This document shows positions 35,154-64,000 of a stretch of DNA of 64,000 nt, one piece after another; the first letter of the stretch is position 1; the number at the start of each line of letters is the position of its first letter. The stretch is from positions 33,978,001-34,042,000 of the forward strand of contig CM119372.1 of the NCBI GenBank assembly GCA_051294905.1. Reading direction: 5' to 3'. The notes below the pieces were generated by a model, which did not search any database, had not been told where the DNA came from, and saw nothing but the letters and a program-made list of their open reading frames with translations. The position numbers and the translations under genes are program-made. The stretch comes from Botryllus schlosseri. Taxonomy: Eukaryota.

Positions 35154-35420
35154 GAAAAAGCTGCGTAGCTCTAATTCTAATTTTAACATAATTTGAAAAA
35201 GCTGCGTAGCTCTAATTCTAATTTTAACATAATTTGAAAAAGCTGCGTAGCTCTAATTCTAATTTTAACATAATTTGAAAAAGCTGCGTAGCTCTAATTC
35301 TAATTTTAACATAATTTGAAAAAGCTGCGTAGCTCTAATTCTAATTTTAACATAATTTGAAAAAGCTGCGTAGCTCTAATTCTAATTTTAACATAATTTG
35401 GAAAAGCTGTGTAGCTCTAA
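35154..35420. repeat. 41-bp minisatellite, ~6.5 near-identical copies
   Basis: Unit GAAAAAGCTGCGTAGCTCTAATTCTAATTTTAACATAATTT. A single-unit relative lies on the opposite strand at ~10790-10872. Confidence 0.95.
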
Positions 35421-40081: not shown

Positions 40082-40096
40082 AACCAAACCTACGGA

Positions 40097-40708
40097 ATGA
40101 AGAAAATCATTGGTGAAACACCAACAACGACGCGAGTGCATCCGGTCACCACTGCGAAGGCTCTGCAGAACTCCACGGAAGACGGCAGGACCGACATCGG
40201 AACGGACTACCAAAACCCAGACCACAACCGCAAGGTAAGTACCGAAACAACTGTTTTGTATTCAACAGGAGACGACAAAGACGACTCGTCCTCGAAGAGT
40301 GTCGAACTAATGAATATTACCTTTGAGTCAACGATGGCTAACACATCGCCGCAGCCCGGGCAGAAAACCCGAAGTTTGGGAACACCCGCTCCTGAGTATT
40401 CCCGAATATCAAGAACCACCGTGGGGAAGACAACCACAGATTTCGTTGACCACAACTATACTCGATGGCTGCACGAACTGGTGATGATGGAAGGTGGATA
40501 TAAGGTAAGTGGATTAAACTTGATCGATAGGATGATTATGGAAGGTGCGAAACTGATACCTGCACTGAAACCGGTTGCTGTGATAATGATGGTAACCGGG
40601 TTGATAGCTCTGGTGATTGTGTTATGGGTAGGTTGTATAAGGTGTCGTCGACGTAGAACCTTAAGTCGTATGAGGAACACGAGGAGACGAAACGGAACAA
40701 GTCAATAG
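40097..40708 (+). CDS. Env-like type I membrane glycoprotein C-terminal ORF (203 aa), probably 5'-disrupted
   Basis: S/T-rich stalk with sequons NST, NIT, NTS and NYT; hydrophobic segment VAVIMMVTGLIALVIVLWVGCI; Arg-rich cytoplasmic tail. Lies downstream of the Gypsy pol remnant on the same strand. Confidence 0.5.
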   Translation: MKKIIGETPTTTRVHPVTTAKALQNSTEDGRTDIGTDYQNPDHNRKVSTETTVLYSTGDDKDDSSSKSVELMNITFESTMANTSPQPGQKTRSLGTPAPEYSRISRTTVGKTTTDFVDHNYTRWLHELVMMEGGYKVSGLNLIDRMIMEGAKLIPALKPVAVIMMVTGLIALVIVLWVGCIRCRRRRTLSRMRNTRRRNGTSQ

Positions 40709-43700
40709 ATGGCGATAAGAGTAATACGGAACACAACGGAGAATGACTAAATCTGAAGGTAAGAATGGGTGTTTAAGATTTAGATGTAAATACGGGATTT
40801 TCATAGATTGTTATAGGGAAGTAATGAAGTGTAACGTTATAATTTTGGTAAATCGTTAAGAAAAATGGTGATAGGTATCATGCGTATAAAACAAATCCTT
40901 TGGCGCATCGTTTATGATGAGTCCCAAGCACTCCGTGTTTCACGTAATGGGCGTTAAAGGAAAAAACTGTGAGTCATGGTAAGATAGCTATGTAACGAAG
41001 CATAAATGAATGGCAGTGCATCGTTTATAATAGGTATCAAGTGAATTATTTTACGTAATGGGCGTAAACGGAAAAAACTGAAACCTCGCAACTAGAAATC
41101 TGTTGAGTAATGAAATATCAATTCGAGAGAGCAATAAAAGAAAAAGGTTGACGTGTGAAAAGATTGAGTCAATAAGGTGATTACCATGAACGGGTAATGT
41201 TGGTGTATAGTGCACCAGTTCCGAAGATATTGATTCCGAAAATCCGAATCCGTCTGATCACTTGAGTGTCTGAGGAACTATCCGTCCGAATCCGAAGAAT
41301 CTCATATAAAAATCCATGCGAATATGGAAAACCTCGATTGATTCGGACATCTGGCTATCCGGACATCCGCTTTATTCGGCCAAAATGCTCAGCAACGAAA
41401 CATTAATTGAAAATTCCGGCAGCGAGAAAACCTTATTTGCCGAAAAAGACTGGCTTCACACTGACCGAAAACTTCGATATATCTACATTATACATATAGA
41501 TCTAATTGTCCATAGGCGCGTAAATGACTGGCGCCTGGGGTTGTGAATATAGCCCTTTGGGGGCCACGACCAACGTTTTTTAGGGGGGGCTAACGAAGTG
41601 CTGTTTCGGTCCTGGATATCACTCAAAAGCATCTGCGGTAGGCATACCGATCAGAGTTTGATCAATTACATAAATTCAGTTTAATTACAATTACAATTAC
41701 TTCCTTGCATGGTTCAATTACATTACAATTAAAGTTACTCAATGCCTAAAATATCAAATTACAATTACAATTACAATTACTGTTGAACATGTAATTAAAT
41801 ACAATTGCATTTACTGTTAAACATGTAATTAAATCGGTAGAGATGCCCTTTGGCAACCGTAGCAACGTAATTTTGCAACAACCTCAAGCTAGTCATTTCA
41901 TTCATGATACGTAGAATACCCTTTAATCAAAAACAACTCGAACGTATTCGAACTATTCCTAATCATGAGTACTGAAAACTACAAACACTGAATTTTTTTC
42001 AAGCGACCAAAAGTTTGAGTGAATATAGCCTACAAGAACGGCAGCGAAATGTAATCAAACGAATACACAAAGCTGAGTAAGGCAAATGAAATGTAGGCTA
42101 ATTGGTAAGTCATCAGCGATAAGTATGATAATGACAAGGTGTGTAAAATTAAAATAAATGCAAAAGAAAAGAAGCTCCTGATAACTACGAATTACAAAAT
42201 TTTGGTTCCCATTTACATTTTCACTTGCTCAAGAACTGTTATATAGATTGCATTCAGTGGCGGCTCGTCCTATAGGGCAACTGGGGCATTGCCCCACCTA
42301 AAATTCTGTTCAATAACAATTTAACCATTTATAGACGCACAGCGCTCAATATATATCGAGATCACAGCGAAACCCGCGTTCTTGTGCTTTCGCTTGCAAA
42401 TGCCCATACATAGCGAAGTCTCCGCGCAAATCGAATTCTCTTCTGTGTTTTCGCTTTGTGAATGCCTAGCCGGGGCTTGCCCCGGTAGCGCTCATAACAA
42501 GCTTTCACTATCTATTCTCTCAAAGCTGCGCACAATTAAGAAACGTTGCTTTACTCTCTCCTATTCGTAAAATGGCCGAGCAACCGGGGCAAATATGCTT
42601 GCTCGCCCCTAAGGTGTGATGTAACAATCGTATCTATATCTGAACTCGGATACCGTGATATGCGTTGAGTCGACCGTTGCTGGTACAGGTCGATTTTGAT
42701 GGTGTTTCACACCATGATAATTATTGAAACTTGGTATGTCATGTCGTGATGGTGGTATTTAACACTGTCCTAAGTTTCAGGGTTTCTACTCAAAGTTTAG
42801 GGTAGTAATTCCGTTTCCAAAGTCGAGTGTGTGCTGATCGGTCATGTATCGCAAACATATTTCACGCAAAGCCGGTATTGGTCTCCATTGATTTTAACGA
42901 TGCTCCTTAGCTAGATCCGTCATGAACTTTTACATGGTAGCCTATGTCTTGATTTTAGTATCGAACGCTGTGCCAAGTCTCAAGGTTGACACTCAATGAT
43001 TAGGGCAGCAATTTCGTTATTAAGTTCGAGTATGGTAGAGATGTGCGCTGATCTGACACTTAGCCTACCTAACGCATTGCGGATTTCACGCAAAAGCCGG
43101 TGTATCTGTGTTCCATACTGAGATAGGTGATGAGATGATGATATCATGAAACAGTTTACTAACATCCTCGGTTTGCATTCAAATATTTAGTTTTATTTTA
43201 TATTCTCCAATGTCAATTTCACCGTGGAATGGTGGCCTTCTGGCCATTTGCTCACAATTACAACCCCTGTCAAGCGCGATAGCTGTTTCGTTTTCGATGG
43301 CGGCTAACAGCTGATCGCTTGATCAGCCGATTCCTCAGTAAATATTACGCAAAATTCGGCGTTGATCTGTTCGTATTAATTTTGACAGTGTACCATACCG
43401 AAAACGGTCATGAGGCTATACTTCTCGATGATTTCATGTAACAGTGTACCAAGTTTTCGGCTTTCATCCACGTATTTATTCGGTAATATATTTTCCGAAG
43501 GCGATTTTGCAGCAGACATATAGACACTATAGACCGTAAGCCGTATGTGTCGTGTGACAGTCTCCAGCCTCAAGGCCAGAATCTCCCAAGCTGTACCGGG
43601 ACCGAATTTCCGAGGCTGCTATCCGTAGTTCTTCAGAATGATGTTTTGGATTCAATATGACATTTCCTTGTCCAATCTATGAGATAACAATTGCGTATGT

Positions 43701-43796
43701 GTCCGAACTCGTTGACCTTTCCAGTTAGGCATACGCAATCTCTCGATTTATAGTCATTTCCATTTCTGCAGATAAGTAGTCAGGTCAAGTGCGAAC

Positions 43797-45171
43797 ATGA
43801 ATCGTGTTGAATCTTTGCTCCGTACGCCGTTTAGCCAGCTGCCTTTAGAGCAAAAATTAGAGGTAAAGCGTCGTGGGATAAGTGTGCAAAACCTGCTTGT
43901 TGCGGCTTACGAATGTTGCGATATACTGATGTCCCAAATCCAACATCGTCTGAATAGTGACCAGTTGGTTACTTTCGCCCTGTTAAATCCGAGAAATTTC
44001 CCTGCCTACAAAATTCATTTTCCTTCTGGACTACTGCGCAGCGTGCCTCGTTATTACCCGATGATCGACATTGCTCGGTTGGAGAGCGAGTTGACTTGTT
44101 TGTATTCTAACACATCCTTTTCGGAAATTAAAACCACTAGTGAACTTTCAAAATTCCTAGTTGAAAATTCGCTTTCGATCAACTTTGCTACAGTAACTAG
44201 CTTTCTGAATATCATTTTGACCACCCCGATTTCATCCGCGGAATCCGAGCGCAGTTTAAGCACATTGAAACGTATCAAGATCTTTCTCAGAAACAGGATT
44301 GGCCAAGATAGGCTTAATGCAGGGCTGGCCAACCTTTTCAGCCAAAGGGCCACATTCGATTGACGAACTATTGCGCGGGCCACTAGCCGCGCGAAGCGCG
44401 AAAATTTTTTGAAGTTCATAGGTCAATAATATTTTCACTTGACTATATTGCGAGCCTGTTGTATATCGCTGGGCTCAGTTTGCGAAGACTGGGCTATTCG
44501 GCGCATGGACATATCGATATCGAAAGCTGCGACCAACATGCGTCAATCATTTCGTGTCTATACGTTTCATAGTCGACGGTCTTACTGCGAGCGCAAACGC
44601 AATGTCGCATAGGCTATATGTTGAACTCGTAATCGCGAATATAGTTAGACTCAATCTGATACATAAGATATTCTTCCATTTTCACAAAAGGGCAATAATA
44701 TTAAAAACAAGAAATCATGTGACAACATGTTGCACCAAGCTTGTAGAAAATTTTCACCTTTGATAAATCTATCGCAAATCATTCTGCTTTATTGTAGTGT
44801 ACGAAGATATACCAATATGTGAATGGCTGATGGATCTGTCAATGCGTCGGAACTGATATTTTAGCCATCACATCTTAAGTCTTGCGGCCAGACTAATCAA
44901 ATTTTTGGTTCGCCTTGCAAGTTCACAATCTGTGCAATCCATTTTTGATGATATTAGAAATTTCGGAAATTACCTCGCGGGCCACTCAAAACCTTCTCGC
45001 GGGCCACATTTGGCCCGCGGGCCACGGGTTGGCCGGCCCTGGCTTAATGCGTTGGCTGTTCTCTCGATTCACAACGACGTGGTTCTGGGAATTCCAGATT
45101 TCAATAAACTCGTTATTGAACATTTTGCTAATAAGAAATCACGTCGCGCACAATACTTATACAAGACATAA
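43797..45171 (+). pseudogene. Internally deleted hAT transposase, interrupted by MITE 44320-45041
   Basis: N-terminal 'MNRVESLLRTPFSQLPLEQKLEVKRRG' is fused to the C-terminal dimerisation domain 'LTTPISSAESERSLSTLKRIKIFLRNRIGQDRLN|ALAVLSIH...VIEHFANKKSRR'. Confidence 0.88.
44320..45041. mobile_element. hAT (Charlie-like) MITE inserted in the transposase
   Basis: TIRs CAGGGCTGGCCAACC / GGTTGGCCGGCCCTG. TSD GCTTAATG. Confidence 0.92.
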
Positions 45172-46711
45172 ATTAATGCTGGTGGGCGGACGACTGTACA
45201 CATCATGTTCTTTCCGAATAATTTCAATCAAGTGAGCCCAGGTAAGTCAACCATGTCTATGGCTAAGGAAAAGTGAGTGGTTTTCATCCTTATTACTCGA
45301 GGCACACTGACAGTTAATTTACCGATATATTTTGTTATGGCTATGGAAAAAAAGTGAAAAATTCATCAAGATGAAATAATTTATTCTTGAAATTGTTTAA
45401 TGCGATATGTGCTCGCATTTCAATTTAACACAATGCTTTGATTCCTGCTTGAATGATGGCAGGCAGACTCGTAATTAATCTTCCATGGATAACAGCTGGC
45501 TTTTTATAATGTTTTACGTTTATGGGTGCCACCGCTTTGATTGCCTATCCCCTGGTCGTAACGCATCAGGATCGTGTACCAAACACTTTCGGACGAGGGC
45601 AAATCGATTTGACTCGCTTTCGGGACGAGAATCCATATACAAATCGGGTCGGAGGCGCTGCAGCACTTTACAGAATTGCTGAGCATGTAACGATTAAAAC
45701 ACCACAAGGTGTCATGCGAATGCTCTTTGTAGGTAGTTGGTCTGTGTATTTTTGGTATAGTCTTACTCGGCGCTTGCGTAATCTCTACCACGAAATCATA
45801 ACGCATGCTACTAAGGATAACCTGATGATTGATTCGTGGCATGGGAACGATTCTTAGTTCGCGTACATTTTGTAAAATAATCATTTGAATAAAAAACAAT
45901 GAATAAAACATTTGTTACCGCACTTCAAGTCACGCCACCGGCAAACCTCTCGCGGCACCTACGTTAAAAATCATTGTTTACGGGAAATTCATGTGGCCAT
46001 CATGAACGTTGAAAAACGCTACTGTGACGTCATATTGATAACAAGTCGCTTGCGGCCCTTGCCCCACCACCCGATATTGTCACGAGCCGCCACTGATTGC
46101 ATTTGATGAACATAAGGGTGCGTACAGTTACTGCCCCCAGTAAATTCGCCCAAGATTGGGATAACAACTCTAAAAATGCGTGAGCAAGTTTGATGAAGCC
46201 TTGGTTGAAAACTTGGATTTGTTTTTTTGCAATTGTGGCAGCAAGCCTCAGTACTGGTCAGAGATTAAAAAAAAAAACAATGACCGTGATGTAGGAAATG
46301 GCTCATCACACATTTCACAAGAGTTTATTGGCTGTTTATCCCTTTTTGAAATATTAAGATTTAGTTTAGCCCACTGGTTCTCAAACTTTTTTAGACACGC
46401 CCCCCTTATGACAGTGAAATATTTCGTGCCTCCCTTATCTTCATATCACACAATGAAACCAGAATGCTGGCAATCCTTACAGATAGTTTGATAGTATGGA
46501 GGAGGTTATGACTGTTGATGAGAGAATTCTCCAATATGAAATTCGGACTATACAAAGAGCAGTAACTATGAAATTGAGGTAAATCGCGCCAAGCGCATTA
46601 AAATTCTTCAATTTACCTATAGATAACTAACTTACAGATAGATACGCAAAACCCGTCGTTACGCTTGCTTGCCCAGAGGTAATTACTGCTCAGCAATCTG
46701 AACGCAACATA

Positions 46712-47100
46712 ATTGCTAATCCCATAGCTGACGACCCGCGCGCTTAAATTCAATAAAGTTGATCTTAATTGAAAGCTACAGTTGCACTGATTCCGAAAAT
46801 ATACATTAAAATCCAATGAGGGCAATAGAACTCCCTTGAAATACACCTCAAAGTCGGAAAATCGGCATTGTTCTAAACAATCGCAGTGACGCAGCACAAT
46901 GGCCATAACACTGGCCCTTTCGTGGTTGCGATTGTTCAGAACAATGCCGATTTTCAGACTTTAAGGTGTATTTCAAGGGTGTTCCCTTGCCCTGATTAGA
47001 TTTTAATGTATATTTTCGGAATCAGTGCGACAGTAGCTTTCAAATAAGATCAACTTTATTGAATTTAAGTGCGCGGGTCGTCAGCTGCGGGATCAGCAAT
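46712..47100. mobile_element. Fold-back element related to 5328-5915
   Basis: Arms of ~190 bp are reverse complements. The core (GATTCCGAAAATATA...ATCGGCATTGTTC...ATGGCCATAACA) is homologous to the first fold-back. Confidence 0.85.
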
Positions 47101-47712
47101 AGACACTTACGTGACCTTTGACACGAACCAATCAGGTTGCAGCAGGATGTAAACAAAGAACAAGGCCGGGCATGCGGGCAAGCTTACTATGAGCGCTTAT
47201 GGAAAAGAGTTGAAAAATGAAGGTTTTTAGCAAAATTACATTGAATTGGGAATAGCTGGCTTTGGTGATTGGTAATAACGTAGAGTTAGTATGTATTTGC
47301 AGTGGTGGCAAGCACTTATCAGCATGGTATGTCCAAATGAATGGATTTCTGACAACTTTTCGGATGAAGCAACTATTGCTGTATTATCCTTAGTCTTTAC
47401 AGTCGTATACTATAGGATTGTCGTATCGAATAGCATGTATTAGATTAATCTTGAGTCAGGATATATGGGGCATGGGGTATTCATTATGTGGGCTTGGCGT
47501 TATATGCGTTCTATTTATGGAATCGTATATAGTACAGTCTACAGTCTGCATCATTATCTAGCAAATTTGTTACACTGGACACTTGTCTGCATATTCAATG
47601 ATCATATTAATATGATGTATGTTAGGCAACACGATCCGTTCCCAGTTAAAATCGTCATTTATTGTCCTAGCTCATGTATTGAATCAATCAGGACAAATGC
47701 CGGATAAACACT

Positions 47713-49020
47713 GTGCTAATAGCCTTGTGTAACTTTGAGATGGCTACCCAGACCGGGTGTGCGCTTGTACCTTTCCCAGAGCCAATAACATGCATGGAAG
47801 AATGTAAAATCTGGATAAAGGCATGTGGACTACCTTGTAGTCATCTGAATTCTCATTTTATTAATAAAATGACATATCTATTATTGTACCAAAAATATTG
47901 AATCGTGACATAATTCAGATTGTCCAATCTGAAATGCAGTCACACTTGATGCCACAATCGACTGGGTGTGTGTCTCGTTTTATTCCACTCCAGTTTTGTT
48001 GCTTGATGGTGTGTAATGGATTGAAATTGTTGAGAGCAATATATTCAATAATGAGATGAATAGTTGAAATTGGTAGAGGTGATTCGTTGCACGAGTCGAA
48101 CGAGTTCGCCTTGATAGGTGCCTGCACAGCAGTGTTGCTCTGTAAAATAAACATAAACATATTGTATATTTTGTGCAGGTTTGATGGATATCTTTTATGA
48201 AGCTGCAGAAAGAGGAAGTCGATGGATAAAACGCTAGAAAATCAAATTTCTGGAAGAAGTAAAAGCACAAAACAGGAAACTCGTCCAGGAAAATTACAAA
48301 TTGATGGACAATTATTGCTAGTGAAGTTCAATTCTCAGAGGAGCATCACAATGTCAAAAGATGCGGAGAAGCTGAAATGTTATACTAGAATACATCAAAT
48401 TCTTTCTGAATTGCCCGACTTATCCTACTGACGTCAAATTTATAGTATTGCTGTAAGCATGGTATTAAAACCATTGGGTCAACCGTATGTAACTGCTCAT
48501 TAAATTTCGATTTGGCCATGTAGATATGTGGTTCTAAAAAATGCACCATTTGCATTCATTCATGATTTCTCAAAACTAGAATGATTATTGACTGTCAATA
48601 AATCACATACAACTTTGAAAGGATTGATGGATTGTGGTGCACTTACTTTTGTGCAGGAACTGTTCACAGGGACCATTTCAGATCAAAATATTAGTGAAAT
48701 ATGTGGGTTCGACAAGAAATGTGAGAAAATGATGGAGTTCAGCTATGGTGAACTAGGAAATGCTATCATGGCAGAAATGGGATTCACCATTAAGTCTGAA
48801 ATCAAGAAATTGAATCTAGATTTAAATATTCCTGCACATGATTTGGCACACCGTCTAATGCCTGAGCCAGACTGTTCCGCAACAAGATGGCGAGACAACG
48901 TATTCATATTGAACAGCTGATCGGAAGAATCAAGGAGTATAAAATTTTGTCTGGTGTCATACTATGCAGCATTGTGTATCAACTAACCAAATATGGAATA
49001 ATTGCTTACTCTAATTCAAG
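47713..49020 (+). pseudogene. THAP + DDE_Tnp_4 transposase remnant (ISL2EU / PIF-Harbinger type)
   Basis: THAP-like 'VPFPEPITCMEECKIWIKACGLP'. DDE4-like 'KSHTTLKGL..GALTFVQELFTGTISD', 'AIMAEMGFTI', 'LNIPA', 'IGRIKEYKILSG'. Confidence 0.8.
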
Positions 49021-49199
49021 ATTGAAAATTAAAAATGAATGACGCAACATATTCGGTAATTGTGCAAATTCAGTTCCATTGTGAATATCGTAATGCCTAA
49101 TAGCATGCTACGGATCGTAATTGCGCGGTGCCATGGTCAATGTGTACCAACAGTGCATGTGTATTCATACTATATTCCAGTGGTGTGCATTGAAGCTCA

Positions 49200-50092
49200 T
49201 TTAGATGCCCAATTTGTTGAATGAACAATTCTCCTGGATTATTTGTGTTTGGTGGAATGTTATAAAACTGAAGACACCAGATACACCAAAATCTACCTTG
49301 AGGCAGGAGTTGATCGGTTGCGAGTACGGTCGAAAGATTGCTTGTCAATGTAGTCCTTGTAGCTTCAGGTGCTGGATTGTCTTAATCAATGCATATGCAT
49401 GAGAGCATATATCAGAACCTAATGTGAAAATAAATCATGGTTACAATATCTATTGCAGGAGTCTCTGAAAAAATGTCTTATTCCTTACTTACCCTGTCTT
49501 ACAAGTGCATGACGAATCAATAATGGATTTTCTGAGAACGTGTATTTCAATTGAGTGTTACATCTCACTTTTCTGCAAGTTGTGATAACATTGGCTGTTC
49601 ACTAGAATATTGCTTCCACAAAGAGTGGATTGTCTCCTCAATCTTTTTCCCTAAGTCGTGTACGTAGCGCTCCATGAAATACTTCGTAGCTTTCTCCGCG
49701 GTGTTAGAAGAAGATGCTGTTCCACTCAAATCCAGAAATTCGATAGAATCTCCATAGCTTTCAAGTTTCATAATCAATACACCAAAATTGTGATGTGTGG
49801 CAGCAGCTGTATTTTATAGCATATATTTCTGAACATGAGATATGCTTGAAAATTTGGCTCGAGACCTGGAGCCTGTAGGCCCATTTACATGACGGTTTAA
49901 GTCAGCTTCGAAGCTGACTCGTCGATCCGACTCTCTCGTATTCGATGAAAAGAGAAAAACAAACTGCTTCAAGTCGACTCGAGCGTCAAGCTGTTGTGTA
50001 ATGTGGTTTACGATCGGCTTGAGTATTTGGTCATCGGCGTCCGGCGATTTTCGTTCGACGGCGCTGTATTTTGCCGCGCGGGCTCTTGGCAT
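49200..50092 (-). pseudogene. Convergent second gene of the ISL2EU-type element (SWIM zinc-finger region)
   Basis: 'KATKYFMERYVHDL' and 'IIDSSCTCKTG|gtaag..', followed by 'GSDICSHAYALIK': a SWIM CxC..CxH motif split by an apparent intron. Confidence 0.6.
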
Positions 50093-50669
50093 CGTAATTC
50101 ATGTTTTTCATTCGATGTTGAGAAATTGGGCAAACATGGTAAGGAAAAGTGGGGTTACTTTGTAAGTGCTCGCTTGTTTATATGTAGTACACCAGTACCG
50201 GAGTAGCAACCGTGCTCTTTTAGGGCAGTTTTATATTTGATATTTGGCTTCGATCTGTAGTAGCCTAGTTGCTGTCATCAGCTACATAAAATGGCTAACA
50301 AGGTAAAACGTTGCATCTGTATTTCAACTTCTCAGACTACAGTTCGGAAGAGATATGGATTGTACCGGTACTACAATTCGACTACGACATGCATAGTGAA
50401 CTGATGGAAGAAGCGGCCCTGCAGTGTGATATATCGATACGGGAATACATGGACGATTGCTGCATTTCGTACATAGGCCTACTGTTCCACTGGATAAACT
50501 GATGTGAGCGCGCATGTGATGGGATGGAGCTGGTGTCTCTCCCGTGTGGATGATATGGAGATTTGTGACTCTCCTGGTGATGATGAAGCGCAGCGGTGTT
50601 AGGATTATTGCTTTGTTTTTAGTTCTGGGTTATAGTGTTCTGCTGATATGATAGTAGTTAGTATGATCG

Positions 50670-51135
50670 GTCGTGACCTGGCAGGGGTTCTTATGGGCCC
50701 GCTGGTGAGGTGCCGCGAAACTCGTGTTGGTGATGGCACCCTTTTGACCCCCCCTTCCGCTGGTGAGGTGCCATGTGTTCTTATGGGATCTCTGGTGATG
50801 GTACCCTTTCAGGTATAGGCTTCGTCGTTGATGTGTCGTGAAAACTCGTGTTGGTGATGGCACCCTTTCAGACCCCCTGTCGCTCGTGATGTGCCATTGT
50901 TTTTTACGGGATCTCTGGTGATGTGCCATTGGTTCTTATGGGATCTCTGGTGAGGTGCCATGTGTTCTTATGGGTGCGGTCGTGATTCGCACTTTCAGCC
51001 ATCTCTCGACCGGTACCTCGAAACTCGTCTTGAACCGGTAACCATTTTCGGTATAGGGATCACTCAACCGGTGCCTCGAAACTCGTCTTGAACCGGTGAC
51101 CATCTCCGGTATAGGGATCGCTCAACCGGTGTCGT
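50670..51135. repeat. Compound minisatellite (~32-bp GGTGAGGTGCCATGTGTTCTTATGGGATCTCT units plus a ~58-bp duplication)
   Basis: Units at ~50763, 50885, 50917 and 50949; ACCGGT(A/G)CCTCGAAACTCGTCTTGAACCGGT occurs twice. Confidence 0.8.
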
Positions 51136-54100
51136 AGTGGTAATTCGTACTTTCGGGTATATGCATCTCTCGCACGGTGTTGAATATGTATCAAGTAAAT
51201 AGTCACGTGATTGGCTCTTAGTTAATGTGTACATCCCAAATTATTATATATGACCGATTCGAGTTAATCCCAACGTTTACGGTGAATGTGACTTTAATAT
51301 ATCGTTATTCTTATGGGCGCGGCGATGATTCGTACTTTCGTTGATAGAATGCTAGCGGCATGTCGTACTTTCACCAAAAAGGGTGTGAAATAGTTTGCTA
51401 AATCTAGGAATCAGTCGCTTGGTAATTAGTTTACCACGGAGCCGGCGTAGACGGCGATTCCAATACCAATACCAAAAATAGCCGCGTTCACATATTAACA
51501 CTCCAAATAGGTGTGAAATAGTTTGCAAACCCTGCGTTCGCTGACAAGATAATGTCTCAGACATACGCGACTTGATGTTACAGGCATATCGATCGCTCAC
51601 GCGGTGAAATTTTCGTAAGCAGTTTGTCACAGAACTTGATTTCAGCCGTAAAGATTTAATAAGTAACGAATAACAGACCGCCAGTGTCGGTAACTTGAAT
51701 AGCGACAAATTGTCACTTATTTCCGCTCTAACCCTAATCCTTTGTGAAGTGAACGCTTATTCAAATAGGTGTGAAATAATTTTAAAATCCTACGACACTC
51801 ACAGGGTAATGCTTCAGACAAAGCGATCCCTCATACCCGCTCACAAGGTAATATTTCCGTAATTAGTTTGTCACAGAGTCGTCGCAGACGGTGATTCGTA
51901 AACCAACAATTTGACACTTTCTGGTATGGTCGCTATATATGTTTTTGACACTTTGGAACGTGGTTGACTTTAGTTGTATGATAAGAATCATGCGAATATT
52001 CAAGTAATGTATCAATTGACTGAAATGAAACTTACTACACAGCTCAAGTTGATTCGTGTCTGAATGTGTTAATTCGGTACAATTCTAATTAATTTGAGAA
52101 ATCTTTTTAACGTGATCTTTTGATTCGACCGTAACCTGAATATTACTGACACCGACTTTCAGTCACATTGAATTATTCACACATTCCACGCCGCTGTTTT
52201 AACAGTTATAGAATCAATACCAACTATCTCTAACCCGATAATATTCCATCATTTTGGTAATTTACCAACTTTAAATCCATTCGCGGATGTACTAAAGGTA
52301 AATCCAAATAATCCAAAATGAAATATTTGGACTTTGACATAGTCTGAATTGAAATAGATTGACAAACATGACTACCAACTTCCCCGCAGTCCCATTTCGA
52401 TATTATATGCACATTGATTTGAAACAAGTAATGAAACATTGCAACTCTATTCGCAATCCCGCTTTCCGTTTGTCAAAGAGATATTTTAACATCTTACCAT
52501 ACTCAAAAGAATTCTTCACAACATTAACAATTGTTAAAAATCTAGTTTTCACTTACTTGATTATATCACTACAACTCACAAATTTTAATTCATCCTGGCT
52601 GTATTCGTATGATCGGTCGTTTTTATTCGATTGTAAAGGTCGTTACTATTCTGAAGACAAAGTATTTACTAATCGGTACATATACGATTTGACTTGGACA
52701 TATTATATTTTGAGTATACGAGATTTGAATGTCCGAACAATAACTGAGAATTAATTTATCACAATTAAATCCGTATATTACAGCGTAAAAGATATTGGGG
52801 TGTCAGCAACTCTGTACGGTCGTAGTTACAACCACATTAACTAATCTACCCAGGCAACTCGTCATGATCATTCCTGAAATCAACACAAACACGACCACTG
52901 ACTTGAGTTAACCGCGAAACAGCATCAAGTTTTAAATCCGCTTGCAGCTGACGGATTATTCGAATGCATCGATGGAGAATATTATTGAACTCGTCGGTAT
53001 TGTTACTTCAACAAATTACACCGACTGCGAAAGTTAATATCGAATGATAAGACTTGATCACATATTTGTTGATCACAGACATGACAAAAAAACATTACCG
53101 AGATTTTATAAACTAGTCATATTACTCTACACATCTATCAATATCAAAATGCGAGTCATCCAATTTTTCTACTAAAGTAACATTGCACTTTCGGATTCGG
53201 ATTCGGTATAGTCATACAAATTGTATTAAATCCAACATCAAAACAAAAGGAATTTTTTTTTAGTTTATTGAAATCAAATCATTCGTCTTCGACTTGTGCT
53301 TTTCTAGATTGCGCGCAACAATTCGTTACGAATGAGCTGTAACCAAAGTTAAGAATTCTTTGTGTCCACAGATATAGAAGATGAATATAGCTAACACCAA
53401 TCACGAATCGACGTTTCAGAGTATTTCACGGATGTAATAAACTTGTTAGTGTCGCCTATCTAAAAGTATGCATGCGTTCGATTTCCATACCGACTGTTGC
53501 GATGTTTAGGATTCGCTTACAATGACCAAGAGTGAGGATTTAACATCAATGTCGTTACTGGAGGTATTCACAACAGAGAATCGAAACATTACACAGTGTG
53601 AAAATATATCTTTGATATCAAAGCACTATCCCAAGTACACGATTAATACTCAACTCCGTTCACACTTTTTATAGAACGTGCTAAATGTAAAATATCACGA
53701 GGTTGCACTCTAAGACTTTGATCATTACAAAAGTAAATTGAATATGTTTGCTCGACGCATTCAATTCAACTAGAAATGTCTAGTGCACAACAATCGTAAT
53801 ATTAAGGAAGTACTTGCTACACTGTAATTCACTAAACGTGTTTTGCATTGTTGTTCATTTGTAGCATTGATTGAAATTGTTTTTTGAACCCTCAAATAAT
53901 AATTCCCGACATGAAACCAAACCGCTGAAAGTCGTTACCAACACAAAGAAACACTTTGTACGATGTTTGCCAAATGTACCCTATGGTTAGGTGTACTAGA
54001 ATTATTTGTGTAACACATACACCGACAATGTAATCGAAAATTTTTCCGTTGTCATTCGCTAAAGTAAATGTCATCACAATACTCTGTCACTAAAGATCTT

Positions 54101-55286
54101 ACTTGTATCTGATTGAATCACCGATAATTAACTCGCTAAATCAAACCATAAGGAAATTTCACTCACTCATCAGATATGAAACAGCGTCGCTTAATCGGTG
54201 TAGATCGTTTTTCTAAATGCAAATCATACCTGACCAACAGAAAAACAATTTTCACTCACCTTGTAATGAAACCAAGTGTAGTGGACCTTCGTTCAATATT
54301 TTGTTTGTGTCAAATACTTTGCAATAAACACACTGGAGTGGTCGAGCTTTACATCAGCAGACTGTAATCTGTAAATCAAGCTTACATCCGACTTGTAACT
54401 GTATCGTTTACCTAACCGAGTTGTATGCACTGTTTGATATTTTTTGTTATTTGGTAATTGCTGAATATACTACTTCGAAATACTCCCTTGAACGTAATTT
54501 CCATCATCGTAATAATCGAAGTACATTTATGTCGAATTCGTAACAGCCGACTATGACATGATAAATTTTTGACAAGTTATGCTTGGAAGATTGGTTGTAT
54601 ATCACGAAAAATAATTACCGCTCATATTCATACTGTTATCCATTGTTCGGTATTTTCAAACGAGTAAAATTTATTACTTGAGTTACTCCGCTTAATGCAA
54701 ATGTAAACACAACCGTCTTTCAACATCGCAAAGACATCGATACGAAGTATACAATCAAACGCAACAAGTTTTACTTTTGTAGGTTGTGTATGGTTATCCT
54801 GCATAACTCATTTCTTACCAAAGCCATATGAAATATATTCATGTTACACGAAAATATTCACTCATGCTACGAACCTGTACAATGATTGGTGGTGCTTTCA
54901 AACTGTTTCGATACCTCAAGAACTTTATTGTCTGAATGGTTGTTCATGTATCATAATAATCAAGTAATTCAACACAGAACTAGTATTAACAGAAACACCA
55001 AAGTTGTTTACACAAAAGTTTGTATGTGTACAGTATACGAATACCATGTGTAAGTCCAGCACAATTGTGGTATCCATACGAGTTTAGTTAACACAATTTA
55101 CGACACCGAGGTCGCGTCATCTTTCGTAAGACAACAAACCAAGGCTTCAGGATATGTCCATGTCATAGCAATGAATCAGCTACTCCAACAACAGAGTGCA
55201 TATGTTTTCTAGTTACGGTGCTTACATCTTACACACAAATCAATCTACTTTGCTAACGAAAAGTGGTGAGTCATCATATGGTTATC

Positions 55287-55831
55287 TAGGCGTACCATAT
55301 TTCGGAAAGGAAAAAAGAGGACACTTTTTCAGAAATTTCAGACAAGCAAAACTGGAGAAGAATTCTAAAAAACAGGTAAATTTTACCCGCTTCATGATCG
55401 GATGACTAAAAAAAAAAAATAAAAAAGGTCATCACTTCCGCTCAGAGCTCAAAAACACGTTTTTCACTCCACATTGCCAGGTGGATGACTAAAAAAAAAA
55501 AAAAAAAAAAAAAGTCATCACTTCCGCTCAGAGCTCAAAAACACGTTTTTCACTCCACATTGCCAGGTGGATGACTAAAAAAAAAAAAAAAAAGGTCTTT
55601 TTTTCGCTCATAGCTGAATTCACCCCTTTTCGCTCCGAAATACCCGCCGGAGCTTCACTTCTGCGCTAATTTGCGGCATATCACTCGCGATTTCCTCTAA
55701 ATATGACCTAAATTTTCAAAAAAGAGGACAAAATCTCAAAAAAGAGGACAAAAGGGCGTCCTCCGAGGACACTTTCAAAAAAGTCAAAAAAGAGGACAAA
55801 TCCTCTTAAAAGAGGACGTATGGTAAGCCTA
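55287..55831. mobile_element. hAT-type MITE present only in the left palindrome arm
   Basis: TIRs TAGGCGTACCATA / TATGGTAAGCCTA. TSD TGGTTATC. Empty site at ~60592-60599 in the right arm. Internal GGATGACT-poly(A) tandem units. Confidence 0.93.
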
Positions 55832-56099
55832 TGGTTATCCTCACTAGTAAAACATACTATCATACAAAATGGTCGTTATAGTTTGCACACCAACGGTACA
55901 TGGTACAAGTAACAAGTCTCGAGCATCCAGTTATTCAAAAAACGTGAAAGTATTTCTACACCAAGTCGTTATGTTGACGAAAGCGTATATTGTAATACCA
56001 TGATCGATTTGCATTCGTTGGTCACAAACTGTCACTACTCTAAATAATTATTTTTCACTCAAACACAAAAGCATACTTGTCGCCAATCGTTTTCATCAA

Positions 56100-58689
56100 G
56101 TACGAGTTCAAGAAACTTACTACGACATGAATTTTTATTTTTATGTAGTGTAAATAGGTAATAATTAATTCAAGTAACACTATATCAACATCATCGAGTT
56201 GTGCTAATAGATTTACATGTCTTGTGGTTTTCATCGGGACATACAGCACGAACTAACTGTAGACTCCTCTCTGTTGTACAGCTACTCGGTAATCGAAATG
56301 CATTAACATGTAAACAACGATCTTGTTTCGTCACACCAAAAATATGTTCACTGTCGCGATACTCCGCACAAGACGTGCATAGCCTTTGCACACTCGTAAT
56401 AGTATACCAACGTCAAGCGATAACCTTTAACAAGACCAACGACACTGAACCCACGACGTTTACCTATGTAAAATTACCACTTTCACTTGCCAGTCCATCG
56501 TTTACCTGACTAAACATATTATTTTCCTTTGGAGATCTGACGTTTACCCAGAGTAAGAAACCATTTTCACTTGTAAATATATTTTTTCCTTGGCTAACAA
56601 ACCTTTTTTCACTTGGAAATATATTTTTTCCTTGGCTAACAAACCTTTTTTCACTTGGAAATATATTTTTTCTCTGGTTAACAAACCTTTTTCACTTGGA
56701 AATATATTTTTTCTCTGGCTAACAAACCTTTTTCACTTGGAAATATATTTTTCCCTGGGTAACAAACCTTTTTTTCCCTGAGCAACAAACCATTCTGACT
56801 TGGTGGTTCGTCGTTTAGCCGAGTAAAAATATCATTTTCCTTTGGAGATCCGGCGTTTACCCAGTGTAACAATACATTTTCACTTGGAAAAATACTTTTA
56901 CCTAGAGTAACTAATCATTTTCTCCTGGGTAACAATCCCTTTTCGTCTGGAAACTATCATTTAACTGAGTACCAATACCGTTTTCACTTGGAAATACATT
57001 TTTTCCCTGGGTAACAATACCATTTTCGTTTTGAAAACTGACAACCACACCGGTCAATTTGATATTTTTGTATATTGTTACAACAAACAGTGACGGAAAT
57101 ATACACAGACAACCGGTTTCAGAGTATACCCCATCGGTCGTATCACATCAATATCATCGGCTAACCACATACAATATGTCCTTGTACACCGAAATGCATG
57201 TTTTGGAAAATTGGACAATAGGCCTCGATAGCTCTGTGATGTCCGGGTTCGTGCTTTGGATTTTCCAGAGTCAAAATGTCTGAATAAAACACCTCCTCGA
57301 CTTTGGTACACGGATATGGTCGGAAAACGGTTGGATTTATGTCACCCATCGCGATAACAATTCCTGGTCGAGTTTTCCTCTGGCATGTTTGCTATATTGT
57401 GTCTTTATTGGTCAATGTATGTCTCGACATTCAGTTTGAAATCGGAAATGATAAAGTATGTAACCGGATCCGGATATCAACTCTGAATCGATAAACCAAT
57501 GAACAATATTCAAAGTAAACATGTCACACCCTGTGTTTCCACGAAAAAATACCATCCAGACATACATCGCGCTTGTTTGCCCACACCAGTATACGCGCAA
57601 ATGGAGGTGTGTGACATTGCATGCAATGTGTTGGTATACAAACATCGATCCACAGACATTATCATAGCTGGTAGTTTTGATGTAGATCGAATGTCACCCG
57701 ATAACAATACCAATAAGCCACATTGCAATGACTCTGAGGTAATCTGAAGCATGACATACAGACACACAAACATGGAACCGTAACATGGGTTATTCGCACG
57801 GCGGTGAAAGTGAACTGTACAGTACATACCAATATTGCGATCACAGTCAAATATGCAAACCGTGTACAATCATATAACCAGGTTTTTGTCTGATAAGTAC
57901 AAATCCAATAAATCGATACATTTCTTTTCCCTGGACATCAATAATACAATCACCATTCAAATGCATCACTCGAATGTGAGGTTCGTCTGGTGTAAAATCC
58001 ATATCAAATAACACCAAAGTGTGCCTTCCGTGTTTTATCATTTCCACCGACGCTTCTTGTCTGTGTCGTAACACTATGGTGCTGGGACTTGAAAAACGAC
58101 GGATTGTGAAACGGATTGACATGATCTTCGATATGACCAACAGAATCGACGTCAATAGCCTTGTGACGATGTCGTTTCAAAATGTTACCGATATGACGAG
58201 CGAAACCTCGATCCCTTGCGGTGATGACCGTTTCGAAATGTGGCTGGACGAATGGGACCCTCAAGATGGCGTGTTTTATGATTGTGTGAAATCACGAGGT
58301 AGTGTTCTATTTGTGGTGTACGATTGCAGTCTTCACAGAAACACACCTTATTGGATCACAGTATCAGTCCGAGATTTGCAGAATCACTGTTCGCGATATT
58401 TATCTGGAGTCGTTATGTGGGAGTAGCGACATCCATGCATCGTGATTTAGTGAAAGACTGATCGCAATCATTTCGAGCACCGTACTTCGATAGTTCACAT
58501 TGGTCAAACGCTGTAGCCTCAGCAGAAAACTTCGGTTCTCGACAACACGCTGGATATTGATCGATGTATCCAATTGATCTGGGTGGTCTGTCTGGAGATA
58601 GGGTCATGACTATCTTGTAATGTTACAACGCGATAACACCATCGAGTAAATCAGTGAACGGTATCGAAATATCGATGTAATAGCGCGGA
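56100..58689 (-). pseudogene. Putative decayed LRR-containing GPCR (LGR/GRL101-like); 7TM part duplicated at 58690-~60300 (+)
   Basis: LRR-like 'MVLSRCNITR..QLDTSINIQRVVENRSF..LQRLTNVN' and 'HIRVMHLNGDCII' in the spacer, then a GTATGT..TTCAG intron (~57744-57830). One frame follows with 'LRVIAMWLIGIVIG*', 'GNTGCDMF..FIDSEL', 'IH*PIK', 'FSKTCISV' and 'LCIFPSLFVVTIYKNIK', and later 'VYS*FVLYVPMKT'. Recognised by eye only. Confidence 0.45.
56520..57030. repeat. 42-43-bp tandem repeat (mirrored at ~59398-59910)
   Basis: Unit TTTCACTTGGAAATATATTTTTTCCTTGGCTAACAAACCTTT with homogeneous central and diverged flanking copies. Confidence 0.92.
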
Positions 58690-61600
58690 CTCAGAGTCAT
58701 TGCAATGTGGCTTATTGGTATTGTTATCGGGTGACATTCGATCTACATCAAAACTACCAGCTATGATAATGTCTGTGGATCGATGTTTGTATACCAACAC
58801 ATTGCATGCAATGTCACACACCTCCATTTGCGCGTATACTGGTGTGGGCAAACAAGCGTGATGTATGTCTGGATGGTATTTTTTCGTGGAAACACAGGGT
58901 GTGACATGTTTACTTTGAATATTGTTCATTGGTTTATCGATTCAGAGTTGATATCCGGATCCGGTTACATACTTTATCATTTCCGATTTCAAACTGAATG
59001 TCGAGACATACATTGACCAATAAAGACACAATATAGCAAACATGCCAGAGGAAAACTCGACCAGGAATTGTTATCGCGATGGGTGACATAAATCCAACCG
59101 TTTTCCGACCATATCCGTGTACCAAAGTCGAGGAGGTGTTTTATTCAGACATTTTGACTCTGGAAAATCCAAAGCACGAACCCGGACATCACAGAGCTAT
59201 CGAGGCCTATTGTCCAATTTTCCAAAACATGCATTTCGGTGTACAAGAGCATATTGTATGTGGTTAACCGATGATATTGATGTGATACGACCGATGGGGT
59301 ATACTCTGAAACCGGTTGTCTGTGTATATTTCCGTCACTGTTTGTTGTAACAATATACAAAAATATCAAATTGACCGGTGTGGTTGTCAGTTTTCAAAAC
59401 GAAAATGGTATTGTTACCCAGGGAAAAAATGTATTTCCAAGTGAAAACGGTATTGGTACTCAGTTAAATGATAGTTTCCAGACGAAAAGGGATTGTTACC
59501 CAGGAGAAAATGATTAGTTACTCTAGGTAAAAGTATTTTTCCAAGTGAAAATGTATTGTTTCACTGGGTAAACGCCGGATCTCCAAAGGAAAATGATATT
59601 TTTACTCGGCTAAACGACGGACCACCAAGTGAGAATGGTTTGTTGCTCAGGGAAAAAAAGGTTTGTTACCCTGGGAAAAATATATTTCCAAGTGAAAAAG
59701 GTTTGTTAGCCAGAGAAAAAATATATTTCCAAGTGAAAAAGGTTTGTTAACCAGAGAAAAAATATATTTCCAAGTGAAAAAAGGTTTGTTAGCCAAGGAA
59801 AAAATATATTTCCAAGTGAAAAAAGGTTTGTTAGCCAAGGAAAAAATATATTTACAAGTGAAAATGGTTTCTTACTCTGGGTAAACGTCAGATCTCCAAA
59901 GGAAAATAATATGTTTAGTCAGGTAAACGATGGACTGGCAAGTGAAAGTGGTAATTTTACATAGGTAAACGTCGTGGGTTCAGTGTCGTTGGTCTTGTTA
60001 AAGGTTATCGCTTGACGTTGGTATACTATTACGAGTGTGCAAAGGCTATGCACGTCTTGTGCGGAGTATCGCGACAGTGAACATATTTTTGGTGTGACGA
60101 AACAAGATCGTTGTTTACATGTTAATGCATTTCGATTACCGAGTAGCTGTACAACAGAGAGGAGTCTACAGTTAGTTCGTGCTGTATGTCCCGATGAAAA
60201 CCACAAGACCGCATGTAAATCTATTAGCACAACTCGATGATGTTGATATAGTGTTACTTGAATTAATTATTACCTATTTACACTACATAAAAATAAAAAT
60301 TCATGTCGTAGTAAGTTTCTTGAACTCGTACTTGATGAAAACGATTGGCGACAAGTATTCTTTTGTGTTTGAGTGAAAAATAATTATTTAGAGTAGTGAC
60401 AGTTTGTGACCAACGAATGCAAATCGATCATGGTATTACAATATACGCTTTCGTCAACATAACGACTTGGTGTAGAAATACTTTCACGTTTTTTGAATAA
60501 CTGGATGCTCGAGACTTGTTACTTGTACGATGTACCGTTGGTGTGCAAACTATAACGACCATTTTGTATGATAGTATGTTTTACTAGTGAGGATAACCAT
60601 ATGATGACTCACCACTTTTCGTTAGCAAAGTAGATTGATTTGTGTGTAAGATGTAAGCACCGTAACTAGAAAACATATGCACTCTGTTGTTGGAGTAGCT
60701 GATTCATTGCTATGACATGGACATATCCTGAAGCCTTGGTTTGTTGTCTTACGAAAGATGACGCGACCTCGGTGTCGTAAATTGTGTTAACTAAACTCGT
60801 ATGGATACCACAATTGTGCTGGACTTACACATGGTATTCGTATACTGTACACATACAAACTTTTGTGTAAACAACTTTGGTGTTTCTGTTAATACTAGTT
60901 CTGTGTTGAATTACTTGATTATTATGATACATGAACAACCATTCAGACAATAAAGTTCTTGAGGTATCGAAACAGTTTGAAAGCACCACCAATCATTGTA
61001 CAGGTTCGTTGCATGAGTGAATATTTTCGTGTAACATGAATATATTTCATATGGCTTTGGTAAGAAATGAGTTATGCAGGATAACCATACACAACCTACA
61101 AAAGTAAAACTTGTTGCGTTTGATTGTATACTTCGTATCGATGTCTTTGCGATGTTGAAAGACGGTTGTGTTTACATTTGCATTAAGCGGAGTAACTCAA
61201 GTAATAAATTTTACTCGTTTGAAAATACCGAACAATGGATAACAGTATGAATATGAGCGGTAATTATTTTTCGTGATATACAACCAATCTTCCAAGCATA
61301 ACTTGTCAAAAATTTATCATGTCATAGTCGGCTGTTACGAATTCGACATAAATGTACTTCGATTAATACGATGATGGAAATTACGTTCAAGGGAGTATTT
61401 CGAAGTAGTATATTCAGCAATTACCAAATAACAAAAAATATCAAACAGTGCATACAACTCGGTTAGGTAAACGATACAGTTACAAGTCGGATGTAAGCTT
61501 GATTTACAGATTACAGTCTGCTGATGTAAAGCTCGACCACTCCAGTGTGTTTATTGCAAAGTATTTGACACAAACAAAATATTGAACGAAGGTCCACTAC

Positions 61601-64000
61601 ACTTGGTTTCATTACAAGGTGAGTGAAAATTGTTTTTCTGTTGGTCAGGTATGATTTGCATTTAGAAAAACGATCTACACCGATTAAGCGACGCTGTTTC
61701 ATATCTGATGAGTGAGTGAAATTTCCTTATGGTTTGATTTAGCGAGTTAATTATCGGTGATTCAATCAGATACAAGTAAGATCTTTAGTGACAGAGTATT
61801 GTGATGACATTTACTTTAGCGAATGACAACGGAAAAATTTTCGATTACATTGTCGGTGTATGTGTTACACAAATAATTCTAGTACACCTAACCATAGGGT
61901 ACATTTGGCAAACATCGTACAAAGTGTTTCTTTGTGTTGGTAACGACTTTCAGCGGTTTGGTTTCATGTCGGGAATTATTATTTGAGGGTTCAAAAAACA
62001 ATTTCAATCAATGCTACAAATGAACAACAATGCAAAACACGTTTAGTGAATTACAGTGTAGCAAGTACTTCCTTAATATTACGATTGTTGTGCACTAGAC
62101 ATTTCTAGTTGAATTGAATGCGTCGAGCAAACATATTCAATTTACTTTTGTAATGATCAAAGTCTTAGAGTGCAACCTCGTGATATTTTACATTTAGCAC
62201 GTTCTATAGAAAGTGTGAACGGAGTTGAGTATTAATCGTGTACTTGGGATAGTGCTTTGATATCAAAGATATATTTTCACACTGTGTAATGTTTCGATTC
62301 TCTGTTGTGAATACCTCCAGTAACGACATTGATGTTAAATCCTCACTCTTGGTCATTGTAAGCGAATCCTAAACATCGCAACAGTCGGTATGGAAATCGA
62401 ACGCATGCATACTTTTAGATAGGCGACACTAACAAGTTTATTACATCCGTGAAATACTCTGAAACGTCGATTCGTGATTGGTGTTAGCTATATTCATCTT
62501 CTATATCTGTGGACACAAAGAATTCTTAACTTTGGTTACAGCTCATTCGTAACGAATTGTTGCGCGCAATCTAGAAAAGCACAAGTCGAAGACGAATGAT
62601 TTGATTTAAATAAACTAAAAAAAAATTCCTTTTGTTTTGATGTTGGATTAATACAATTTGTATGACTATACCGAATCCGAATCCGAAAGTGCAATGTTAC
62701 TTTAGTAGAAAAATTGGATGACTCGCATTTTGATATTGATAGATGTGTAGAGTAATATGACTAGTTTATAAAATCTCGGTAATGTTTTTTTGTCATGTCT
62801 GTGATCAACAAATATGTGATCAAGTCTTATCATTCGATATTAACTTTCGCAGTCGGTGTAATTTGTTGAAGTAACAATACCGACGAGTTCAATAATATTC
62901 TCCATCGATGCATTCGAATAATCCGTCAGCTGCAAGCGGATTTAAAACTTGATGCTGTTTCGCGGTTAACTCAAGTCAGTGGTCGTGTTTGTGTTGATTT
63001 CAGGAATGATCATGACGAGTTGCCTGGGTAGATTAGTTAATGTGGTTGTAACTACGACCGTACAGAGTTGCTGACACCCCAATATCTTTTACGCTGTAAT
63101 ATACGGATTTAATTGTGATAAATTAATTCTCAGTTATTGTTCGGACATTCAAATCTCGTATACTCAAAATATAATATGTCCAAGTCAAATCGTATATGTA
63201 CCGATTAGTAAATACTTTGTCTTCAGAATAGTAACGACCTTTACAATCGAATAAAAACGACCGATCATACGAATACAGCCAGGACGAATTAAAATTTGTG
63301 AGTTGTAGTGATATAATCAAGTAAGTGAAAACTAGATTTTCAACAATTGTTAATGTTGTGAAGAATTCTTTTGAGTATGGTAAGATGTTAAAATATCTCT
63401 TTGACAAACGGAAAGCGGGATTGCGAATAGAGTTGCAATGTTTCATTACTTGTTTCAAATCAATGTGCATATAATATCGAAATGGGACTGCGGGGAAGTT
63501 GGTAGTCATGTTTGTCAATCTATTTCAATTCAGACTATGTCAAAGTCCAAATATTTCATTTTGGATTATTTGGATTTACCTTTAGTACATCCGCGAATGG
63601 ATTTAAAGTTGGTAAATTACCAAAATGATGGAATATTATCGGGTTAGAGATAGTTGGTATTGATTCTATAACTGTTAAAACAGCGGCGTGGAATGTGTGA
63701 ATAATTCAATGTGACTGAAAGTCGGTGTCAGTAATATTCAGGTTACGGTCGAATCAAAAGATCACGTTAAAAAGATTTCTCAAATTAATTAGAATTGTAC
63801 CGAATTAACACATTCAGACACGAATCAACTTGAGCTGTGTAGTAAGTTTCATTTCAGTCAATTGATACATTACTTGAATATTCGCATGATTCTTATCATA
63901 CAACTAAAGTCAACCACGTTCCAAAGTGTCAAAAACATATATAGCGACCATACCAGAAAGTGTCAAATTGTTGGTTTACGAATCACCGTCTGCGACGACT
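58690..64000 (-). repeat. Right arm of giant inverted duplication (continues beyond window)
   Basis: Starts CTCAGAGTCATTGCAATG, the reverse complement of 57721-57738. The last bases of the window match 51877 onward. Confidence 0.97.

Follow-up and report, generated by a model that had tools for sequence, protein, structure and literature searches.

We analysed a 64,000-nucleotide stretch of the Botryllus schlosseri genome (assembly GCA_051294905.1, contig CM119372.1, positions 33,978,001 to 34,042,000 of the forward strand), here called the window, and observed that its right-hand part is occupied by a giant palindrome. The left arm (+) spans 50653-57738 and measures 7,086 bp, the spacer, or loop, takes up the following 951 bp (57739-58689), and the right arm (−) runs from 58690 to the edge of the window at 64000. 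Self-BLAST returned two inverted high-scoring segment pairs, 51877-55286 against 64000-60592 (3,410 bp, 99.8% identity) and 55830-57738 against 60601-58690 (1,912 bp, 99.3%). An initial annotation of this DNA had described a near-perfect palindrome with a 951-bp spacer, scattered substitutions, small indels and one miniature inverted-repeat transposable element (MITE), and both self-BLAST and the full alignment bear this out. Its inner boundaries at 57738 and 58690 hold as well, but 51877 is not an arm end. Since 51877 pairs with base 64000, it is a limit set by the window edge; the repeat itself starts at 50653, ~1.2 kb further left, and the left arm has its mirror inside the window for 51877-57738 only. 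The evidence set out below points to one insertion of a mobile, high-copy family with Maverick/Polinton-type ends.

In the full alignment, the arms differ by 16 substitutions (8 of them transitions) over 5,308 paired columns, or 0.30%, by a 1-bp indel at 53228 and by a 3-bp indel at 56218/60212. The left arm alone also carries a 553-bp insertion, which consists of a 545-bp MITE and an 8-bp target-site duplication (TSD). The MITE proper lies at 55287-55831 (55279-55839 with the 8-bp TSD on each side) and has 13-bp terminal inverted repeats (TIRs) with one mismatch; given its 8-bp TSD, we take it to be of the hAT type. For the region 47200-58950, we compared the window with three DNA contig sets (X1, X5 and X12) and one RNA run (X23), which come from four studies and make up 4 of 24 runs. 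X1 may be the source sample and therefore gives no independent support. RNA reads have loose ends at both edges of the MITE, 55287 and 55831, and the MITE-less joint 55276-55830 is present in X5 and X12. The interior of the MITE (55400-55593) holds an 86-bp duplication with poly(A) runs, and the MITE is well represented among RNA reads, with many different flanks. Further inward, the arm contains a tandem repeat array of 41-42-bp units at 56476-57037, mirrored at 59391-59952.

The left terminus of the element is sharp. It interrupts an expressed, multi-copy host repeat at about 49878-50652 (+) that has no Pfam match: 76 RNA reads (X23) from this repeat lose their match at 50652 and continue into other sequence, and contig 13 of X12 likewise terminates there. 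At site 50429, just before the terminus, the depth is 2,500 in X1, 2,500 in X5 and 8 in X12, and the depth implied for 50653-50727, calculated from bin 50336-50727, is 38,000, 77,000 and 127, respectively. The sequence at the exact break is AGTAGT (50653-50658, +), which is the (AGT)2 end motif of Mavericks/Polintons. The arrangement 5'-(AGT)2//(ACT)2-3' is the commonest vertebrate Maverick end motif and is accompanied by 6-bp TSDs (PMC8097293). AGTAGT at 50653-50658 thus matches one of the two 5' ends, (AGT)2 or (AG)3, of autonomous Mavericks. Either vertebrate end motif starts at 25 of the 63,995 plus-strand positions in the window, so the chance of finding one within 3 nt of a given break is ~0.1%. 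The last six bases of the interrupted repeat, TATGAT (50647-50652, +), form the left copy of a candidate 6-bp TSD, whose second copy is predicted beyond the window. The host repeat itself appears to be spliced. RNA reads break at 50336 and their upstream letters resemble those before 50162, which indicates a GT-AG intron at 50162-50335.

The first part of the element, 50653-51906 (+), is a GC-richer subterminal region made of short imperfect repeats, with 32- and 58-bp units and dispersed motifs. Depth climbs across it in X1, X5 and X12, and many rearrangement joints of other copies fall within it; the region was possibly inherited from the TIR of a helper Maverick. Mirroring the left end places the predicted right end near 65224. 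The predicted element therefore extends from 50653 to about 65224 and measures 14,572 bp (14,019 bp without the MITE), with arms of ~7 kb (about 6.5 kb without the MITE). Here, long TIRs containing tandem-repeat modules enclose a short middle, an architecture that also characterises foldback elements. The element could be a foldback DNA transposon of a cut-and-paste superfamily, of the Mutator or P/Galileo type, that starts with AGTAGT by coincidence. Foldback elements such as Tetris combine long modular TIRs, internal tandem repeats and a non-coding middle (PMC4079207), and the window element has both subterminal and internal tandem repeats. However, the TIRs of Tetris reach 1,735 bp at most and its TSDs 8-10 bp in the same source, against arms of 7 kb here, and a Maverick motif placed exactly at the break is expected by chance in only about one case in a thousand. 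We therefore consider a cut-and-paste foldback transposon quite unlikely and favour an element with Maverick-type ends.

In each of the three DNA runs, both the arm and the spacer proved to be high-copy repeat sequence. Arm depth was taken as the median of 12 arm bins; the two bins of the MITE, the one of the tandem repeat and the three at the terminus were excluded. This median exceeds the depth of the neighbouring Harbinger-type repeat 7.6-fold in X1, 8.7-fold in X5 and 41-fold in X12. With its depth far above that of the neighbouring transposon in 3 of 3 DNA runs, and with a host repeat interrupted at 50652/50653, the sequence behaves as a dispersed multi-copy family. Rare bases provide a rough internal scale: a base private to the left arm at 53669 accounts for 1 in 279 of the X1 depth, and a base common to both arms at 52058 for 1 in 339. 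These shares suggest that the arms number in the hundreds.

The depth profile also bears on the fold. At the boundary between arm and spacer, depth drops from 370,000 to 75,000 in X1, from 200,000 to 45,000 in X5 and from 536 to 114 in X12. The median arm/spacer ratio is 3.6, 3.8 and 2.9 in these runs, and even the lowest arm bin stands at 2.0, 1.6 and 1.5 times the spacer; two arms per loop would give a ratio of 2. The excess may come from copies with other centres or from uneven counting. The loop itself is seen in other copies, namely in two ENA records, one of which (P0122) is collinear with the window over 57728-58633. Moreover, a variant contig of X5 (depth 657) carries a 67-bp deletion, with its joint from 58610 to 58678, that is absent from the window copy. 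Since it has at least 30 letters on each side of this joint, it passes the 58689/58690 junction by at least 18 bases. Record 8 of X1, with 10 differences in 100 bases, passes the junction by 15 bases, and no loose end was found at 58689 among the 24 listed of 3,622. The depth step in 3 of 3 runs and the X5 contig indicate, albeit indirectly, that the fold-back is a trait of the family and not a one-off breakage-fusion event or a chimera. Most likely, then, the palindrome belongs to the replicating unit, and template switching probably gave rise to the family's ancestor, not to the window locus itself.

The ratios above 2 would also fit a different history of the same helper-dependent family. 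In this alternative, no copying back took place: the arms are Maverick TIRs that grew to 7 kb by conversion or by capture of flanking DNA, and a gene-carrying centre was deleted down to 0.95 kb, so that some copies might retain other centres. Internal deletion is indeed the usual route to non-autonomous DNA transposons (PMC3014272). On the other hand, the TIRs of intact vertebrate Mavericks measure 46-1,447 bp (PMC8097293), and the loop is collinear in other copies and contains no core-gene remnant. We regard growth of TIRs as unlikely and prefer copying back as the origin of the fold.

The arms of one copy appear to have been equalised against each other. Of the 40 variant sites listed (of 617 in total), 11 lie in the arm outside the MITE, and 10 of these 11 have the window's base in both arms. 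The shared base makes up just 0.3% of the X1 depth at 52058 and 1.6% at 54744, and at these two sites it does not occur in the X5 or X12 contigs. Both arms thus share bases that are rare in the family. In a palindromic family, a new base reaches both arms only by copying from arm to arm, and the shared rare bases therefore point, indirectly, to equalisation of the arms. Since the MITE and the 16 substitutions persist, this copying is no longer efficient at the window locus, and equalisation probably occurred at or before insertion. The MITE entered the left arm after the last equalisation.

These data also bear on two simpler explanations of the palindrome. A recent inverted duplication at this locus, by fold-back or a breakage-fusion-bridge cycle inside a high-copy but otherwise linear repeat, would likewise give rare bases in both arms. 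However, if just one copy among hundreds were folded, the spacer would not be 3- to 4-fold shallower than the arm in every one of the three runs. The same junction is also present in the X5 contig whose deletion the window copy lacks; we consider a duplication of this kind highly improbable. An assembly artefact, by which chimeric reads were incorporated or two haplotypes or family members were joined head to head, appears just as improbable. High-copy repeats are prone to misjoins, and a head-to-head join of two alleles of one insertion is formally compatible with the data. A fold-back chimera, however, predicts identical arms, whereas the observed arms are set apart by 16 substitutions and by a MITE whose TSD is clean. 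The shared rare bases argue against a join of two unrelated family members, which would not have them in common, and the junction recurs in a run from another study.

The initial annotation had further read an intron/exon boundary between the left arm and the spacer and had concluded from its polarity that the right arm is the derived copy. We found merely a GT at 57739-57740, where the window reads AGG TAA. The ENA proteins P0121 and P0122, evidently called with TGA as Trp, have Ser-Gln at this place; a Gln codon there cannot keep the GT, so the putative donor at 57739 is not kept in these two copies. No RNA joint was observed at 57739 among the 15 listed of 301. With this polarity evidence gone, the claim that the right arm is derived is left unsupported. 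Nor is there support for a host gene having been duplicated at this one locus by fold-back or breakage-fusion-bridge, since Pfam and PHROGs searches revealed no host gene in the arms. What the results favour instead is the second option of that annotation, the centre of a very large fold-back mobile element, as judged from the high copy number, the sharp terminus with its Maverick motif, the family-wide depth step and the junction in another sample. Read depth over the arms, one of the checks that it had named, proved to be that of a high-copy repeat in X1, X5 and X12.

The element has little coding capacity. Over the left arm and the loop, the longest stop-free stretch is 148 aa and the longest ATG frame 128 aa, and we found no intact open reading frame (ORF) for the Maverick core genes pPolB, integrase, ATPase, protease or capsid. 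Pfam searches with sets of 13 and 85 ORFs returned only weak matches in arms and loop (best E 0.0024, all under the curated cut-offs), and a search of all six frames with stops read as X gave one match, at E 0.18, and nothing below. PHROGs matched 0 of 45 ORFs, and Rfam had no match in the window. For the longest ATG frame of the arm (52371-52751), no homologue was found and the fold model reached a predicted local distance difference test (pLDDT) score of 43; other frames or spliced forms may still code for protein.

The loop carries a 91-aa ORF on the minus strand (57850-58122) that may be a small gene. Judged from sequence comparison, it starts at the same ATG and stays open in two other records, at 81-82% identity. 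It belongs to no Pfam or PHROG family, and its best Atlas match, at 0.88, is a lead only. Amino-acid changes in the overlapping plus-strand frame number 12-14 of 90 inside the ORF versus 9 of 42 outside, which gives no clear constraint, and an ATG frame of at least 91 aa arose in 45% of 300 shuffles. Its fold model has a pLDDT of 50, with a best Z of 4.0 (root-mean-square deviation 3.0, 71 aligned) that is not significant and no Foldseek match at E 0.001. Two further candidates were discarded. The 148-aa plus-strand ORF at 57980-58423 has two matches among 1.84 billion representatives and a best Atlas value of 0.84, which is uninformative; since both matches derive from the same DNA, translated with TGA as Trp, we consider it the shadow of the minus-strand frame. 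A supposed AP-endonuclease remnant at 57487-57744, proposed from a motif, was dropped as it had no Pfam support.

The initial annotation had suggested that read-through transcription would give a multi-kb dsRNA hairpin that could feed siRNA/piRNA pathways. Long RNA from the arms and the loop is scant, though many copies contribute. Bins confined to arm or loop and free of the MITE have an X23 depth of 0 to 3.9 per direction, compared to 74 on the host repeat; about 6% of this run was read, and 93% of the aligned reads fit only in part.

Taken together, we give a probability of roughly three in four to the following reading. The window element is one insertion of a high-copy, non-autonomous and almost wholly palindromic family of ~14 kb, with two arms of 6.5-7 kb, a loop of 0.95 kb and Maverick/Polinton-type ends, which arose in a copy-back-like manner and depends for its mobilisation in trans on an autonomous Maverick resident in this tunicate genome. 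Polintons have been proposed, on bioinformatic grounds, to undergo protein-primed replication via an extrachromosomal, racket-like single strand before integration (PMC4196379). We infer that, while a Maverick-like parent was being replicated by protein priming and strand displacement, its polymerase abandoned the template and turned back to copy the newly made strand. This would yield a molecule that carries the same end twice around a loop and has shed the core genes, as copy-back defective viral genomes have. Both ends would keep an origin and an integrase site, which would allow helper enzymes to amplify the molecule and to insert it with a 6-bp TSD. The displaced single strand would fold into a giant panhandle of ~7 kb, in which one arm probably corrects the other. 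After interrupting the host repeat at 50652/50653, the window copy acquired its 16 arm-specific substitutions and its MITE.

Several points weigh against this reading. The window holds one end only, and the predicted (ACT)2 end and second TSD copy lie outside it. A helper Maverick sharing this end was not found: viral contigs gave 0 hits or 4 motif-only chance hits, and the corresponding search of metagenome contigs gave 2 chance hits only. Viral contigs likewise contained no relative of the loop ORF. The interior of the arms shows no sequence link to any Maverick gene, so it is the shape alone that argues for a copy-back origin. Depth summed over contigs is not copy number, and an arm/spacer ratio above 2 is also compatible with copies that have other or larger centres. 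Among the listed contigs, none bridges 58689/58690 by a 31-letter rule. Finally, contigs drop rare variants, so that the absence of the rare bases from X5 and X12 is no proof, and the 11 arm sites are drawn from the 40 listed of 617.

A further-reaching version, which we hold tentatively and at somewhat under even odds, is that the family is an endogenised copy-back satellite of a Polinton virus. It would be a DNA palindrome of the size of a virus whose replication, integration and possibly packaging are carried out by a Maverick helper, and its arms would be equalised in each extrachromosomal round via the giant panhandle. Such a satellite would outnumber its helper and, in the manner of defective-interfering genomes, may hold it in check. 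If this is correct, the family would represent in the germline of an animal what snap-back defective genomes are in viruses, and differences between arms would date each insertion, as long terminal repeats date retroelements. They would also allow the proposed racket-like, single-stranded Polinton intermediate to be tested within a genome. The combination of shared rare bases and few arm-specific changes allows one to ask whether equalisation happens during replication or after insertion. A copy-back error in the Polinton cycle would be expected to leave a high-copy family of gene-poor palindromes that span the whole element and have Maverick ends. Palindromes of 14 kb in hundreds of copies would also have consequences for the stability of this animal's genome and for its assembly. 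Our literature searches retrieved no description of a whole-element palindromic Maverick family; the founding Polinton paper (Kapitonov and Jurka 2006) and Repbase lay outside their coverage, and a prior description is possible.

The remainder of the window contains other mobile elements and a few coding-like regions. Directly upstream of the host repeat, about 47100-49900 is a decayed Harbinger-type transposon with DDE_Tnp_4 remnants at 48585-48917 and in the next frame, which is high-copy in X1 and X5 and has some RNA cover. Nested DNA-transposon fragments lie at 42255-46100; one of them is the remnant of a hAT dimerisation domain (43776-44360), and pieces of this region recur at 9404-9949, 15610-15963 and 16819-17815. 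Smaller palindromic, MITE-like elements of 390-690 bp that are 86-90% self-complementary occur at 5328-5915, 12962-13645 and 46712-47100, the first and third of which are related. A tandem array of seven 41-bp copies, 97% identical, lies at 35136-35424. At 22440-24680 (−), we found an intronless 746-aa ORF for a USP19-like deubiquitinase with UCH and MYND domains, possibly a retrocopy or one very long exon. Its best named matches are in Clavelina and Phallusia; it has no CS domain (PF04969), which longer Clavelina and Phallusia matches carry, and an unnamed 763-aa relative (57%) also lacks this domain. Lastly, about 37800-40750 (+) is GC-rich (45-54%) and decayed coding-like sequence that has no Pfam match. 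It ends in a 208-aa ORF (40082-40705) that encodes a region rich in Ser/Thr and, towards the C terminus, a hydrophobic segment with basic residues after it, an arrangement reminiscent of membrane or envelope proteins.

We compared the element with four kinds of known systems. With autonomous Mavericks/Polintons it shares the 5' (AGT)2 end, the terminal inverted repeats and dispersed insertion (Barreat and Katzourakis 2021, PMC8097293; Jeong et al. 2023, PMC10748475), and its predicted 14.0-14.6 kb fall within the 12.7-24.6 kb of intact vertebrate Mavericks (PMC8097293). Unlike these, its inverted repeats reach ~7 kb and make up over 90% of the element, as opposed to 46-1,447 bp. At least 5,308 bp are paired in the window and about 6.5 kb are predicted without the MITE, far from the TIR size of about 50-1,500 bp. 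In addition, no pPolB, integrase, ATPase, protease or capsid gene was detected in it. With neither the TIR size nor the core genes, the window element is not an autonomous Maverick. Copy number differs as well: Mavericks in anole have fewer than 10 copies (PMC3014272), and the window family apparently has far more.

N-type Polintons exist as well, the N in a Repbase name standing for a non-autonomous derivative. Polinton-1N1_DR (PMC9341505) and Polinton-N1A_NV (PMC11296320) are compared here by name; unlike the window element, Polinton-N1A_NV retains a capsid gene (PMC11296320). Foldback transposons of the Tetris/Galileo kind resemble our element in their long TIRs with tandem-repeat modules, their short non-coding middle and their non-autonomy. 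Tetris differs in its TIRs of up to 1,735 bp, its TSDs of 8-10 bp and its assignment to Mutator (PMC4079207), whereas the arms here are four times longer and the end is Maverick-like. The shape is matched by copy-back and snap-back defective viral genomes, in which one end is copied back to give complementary arms and a loop, coding capacity is lost and a helper is needed. These have been described mainly for negative-strand RNA viruses, as transient molecules (PMC13506859), whereas here we see a 14-kb DNA element present in many copies in an animal genome. In conclusion, the element resembles a non-autonomous Maverick derivative in the way it works and a copy-back genome in its appearance.

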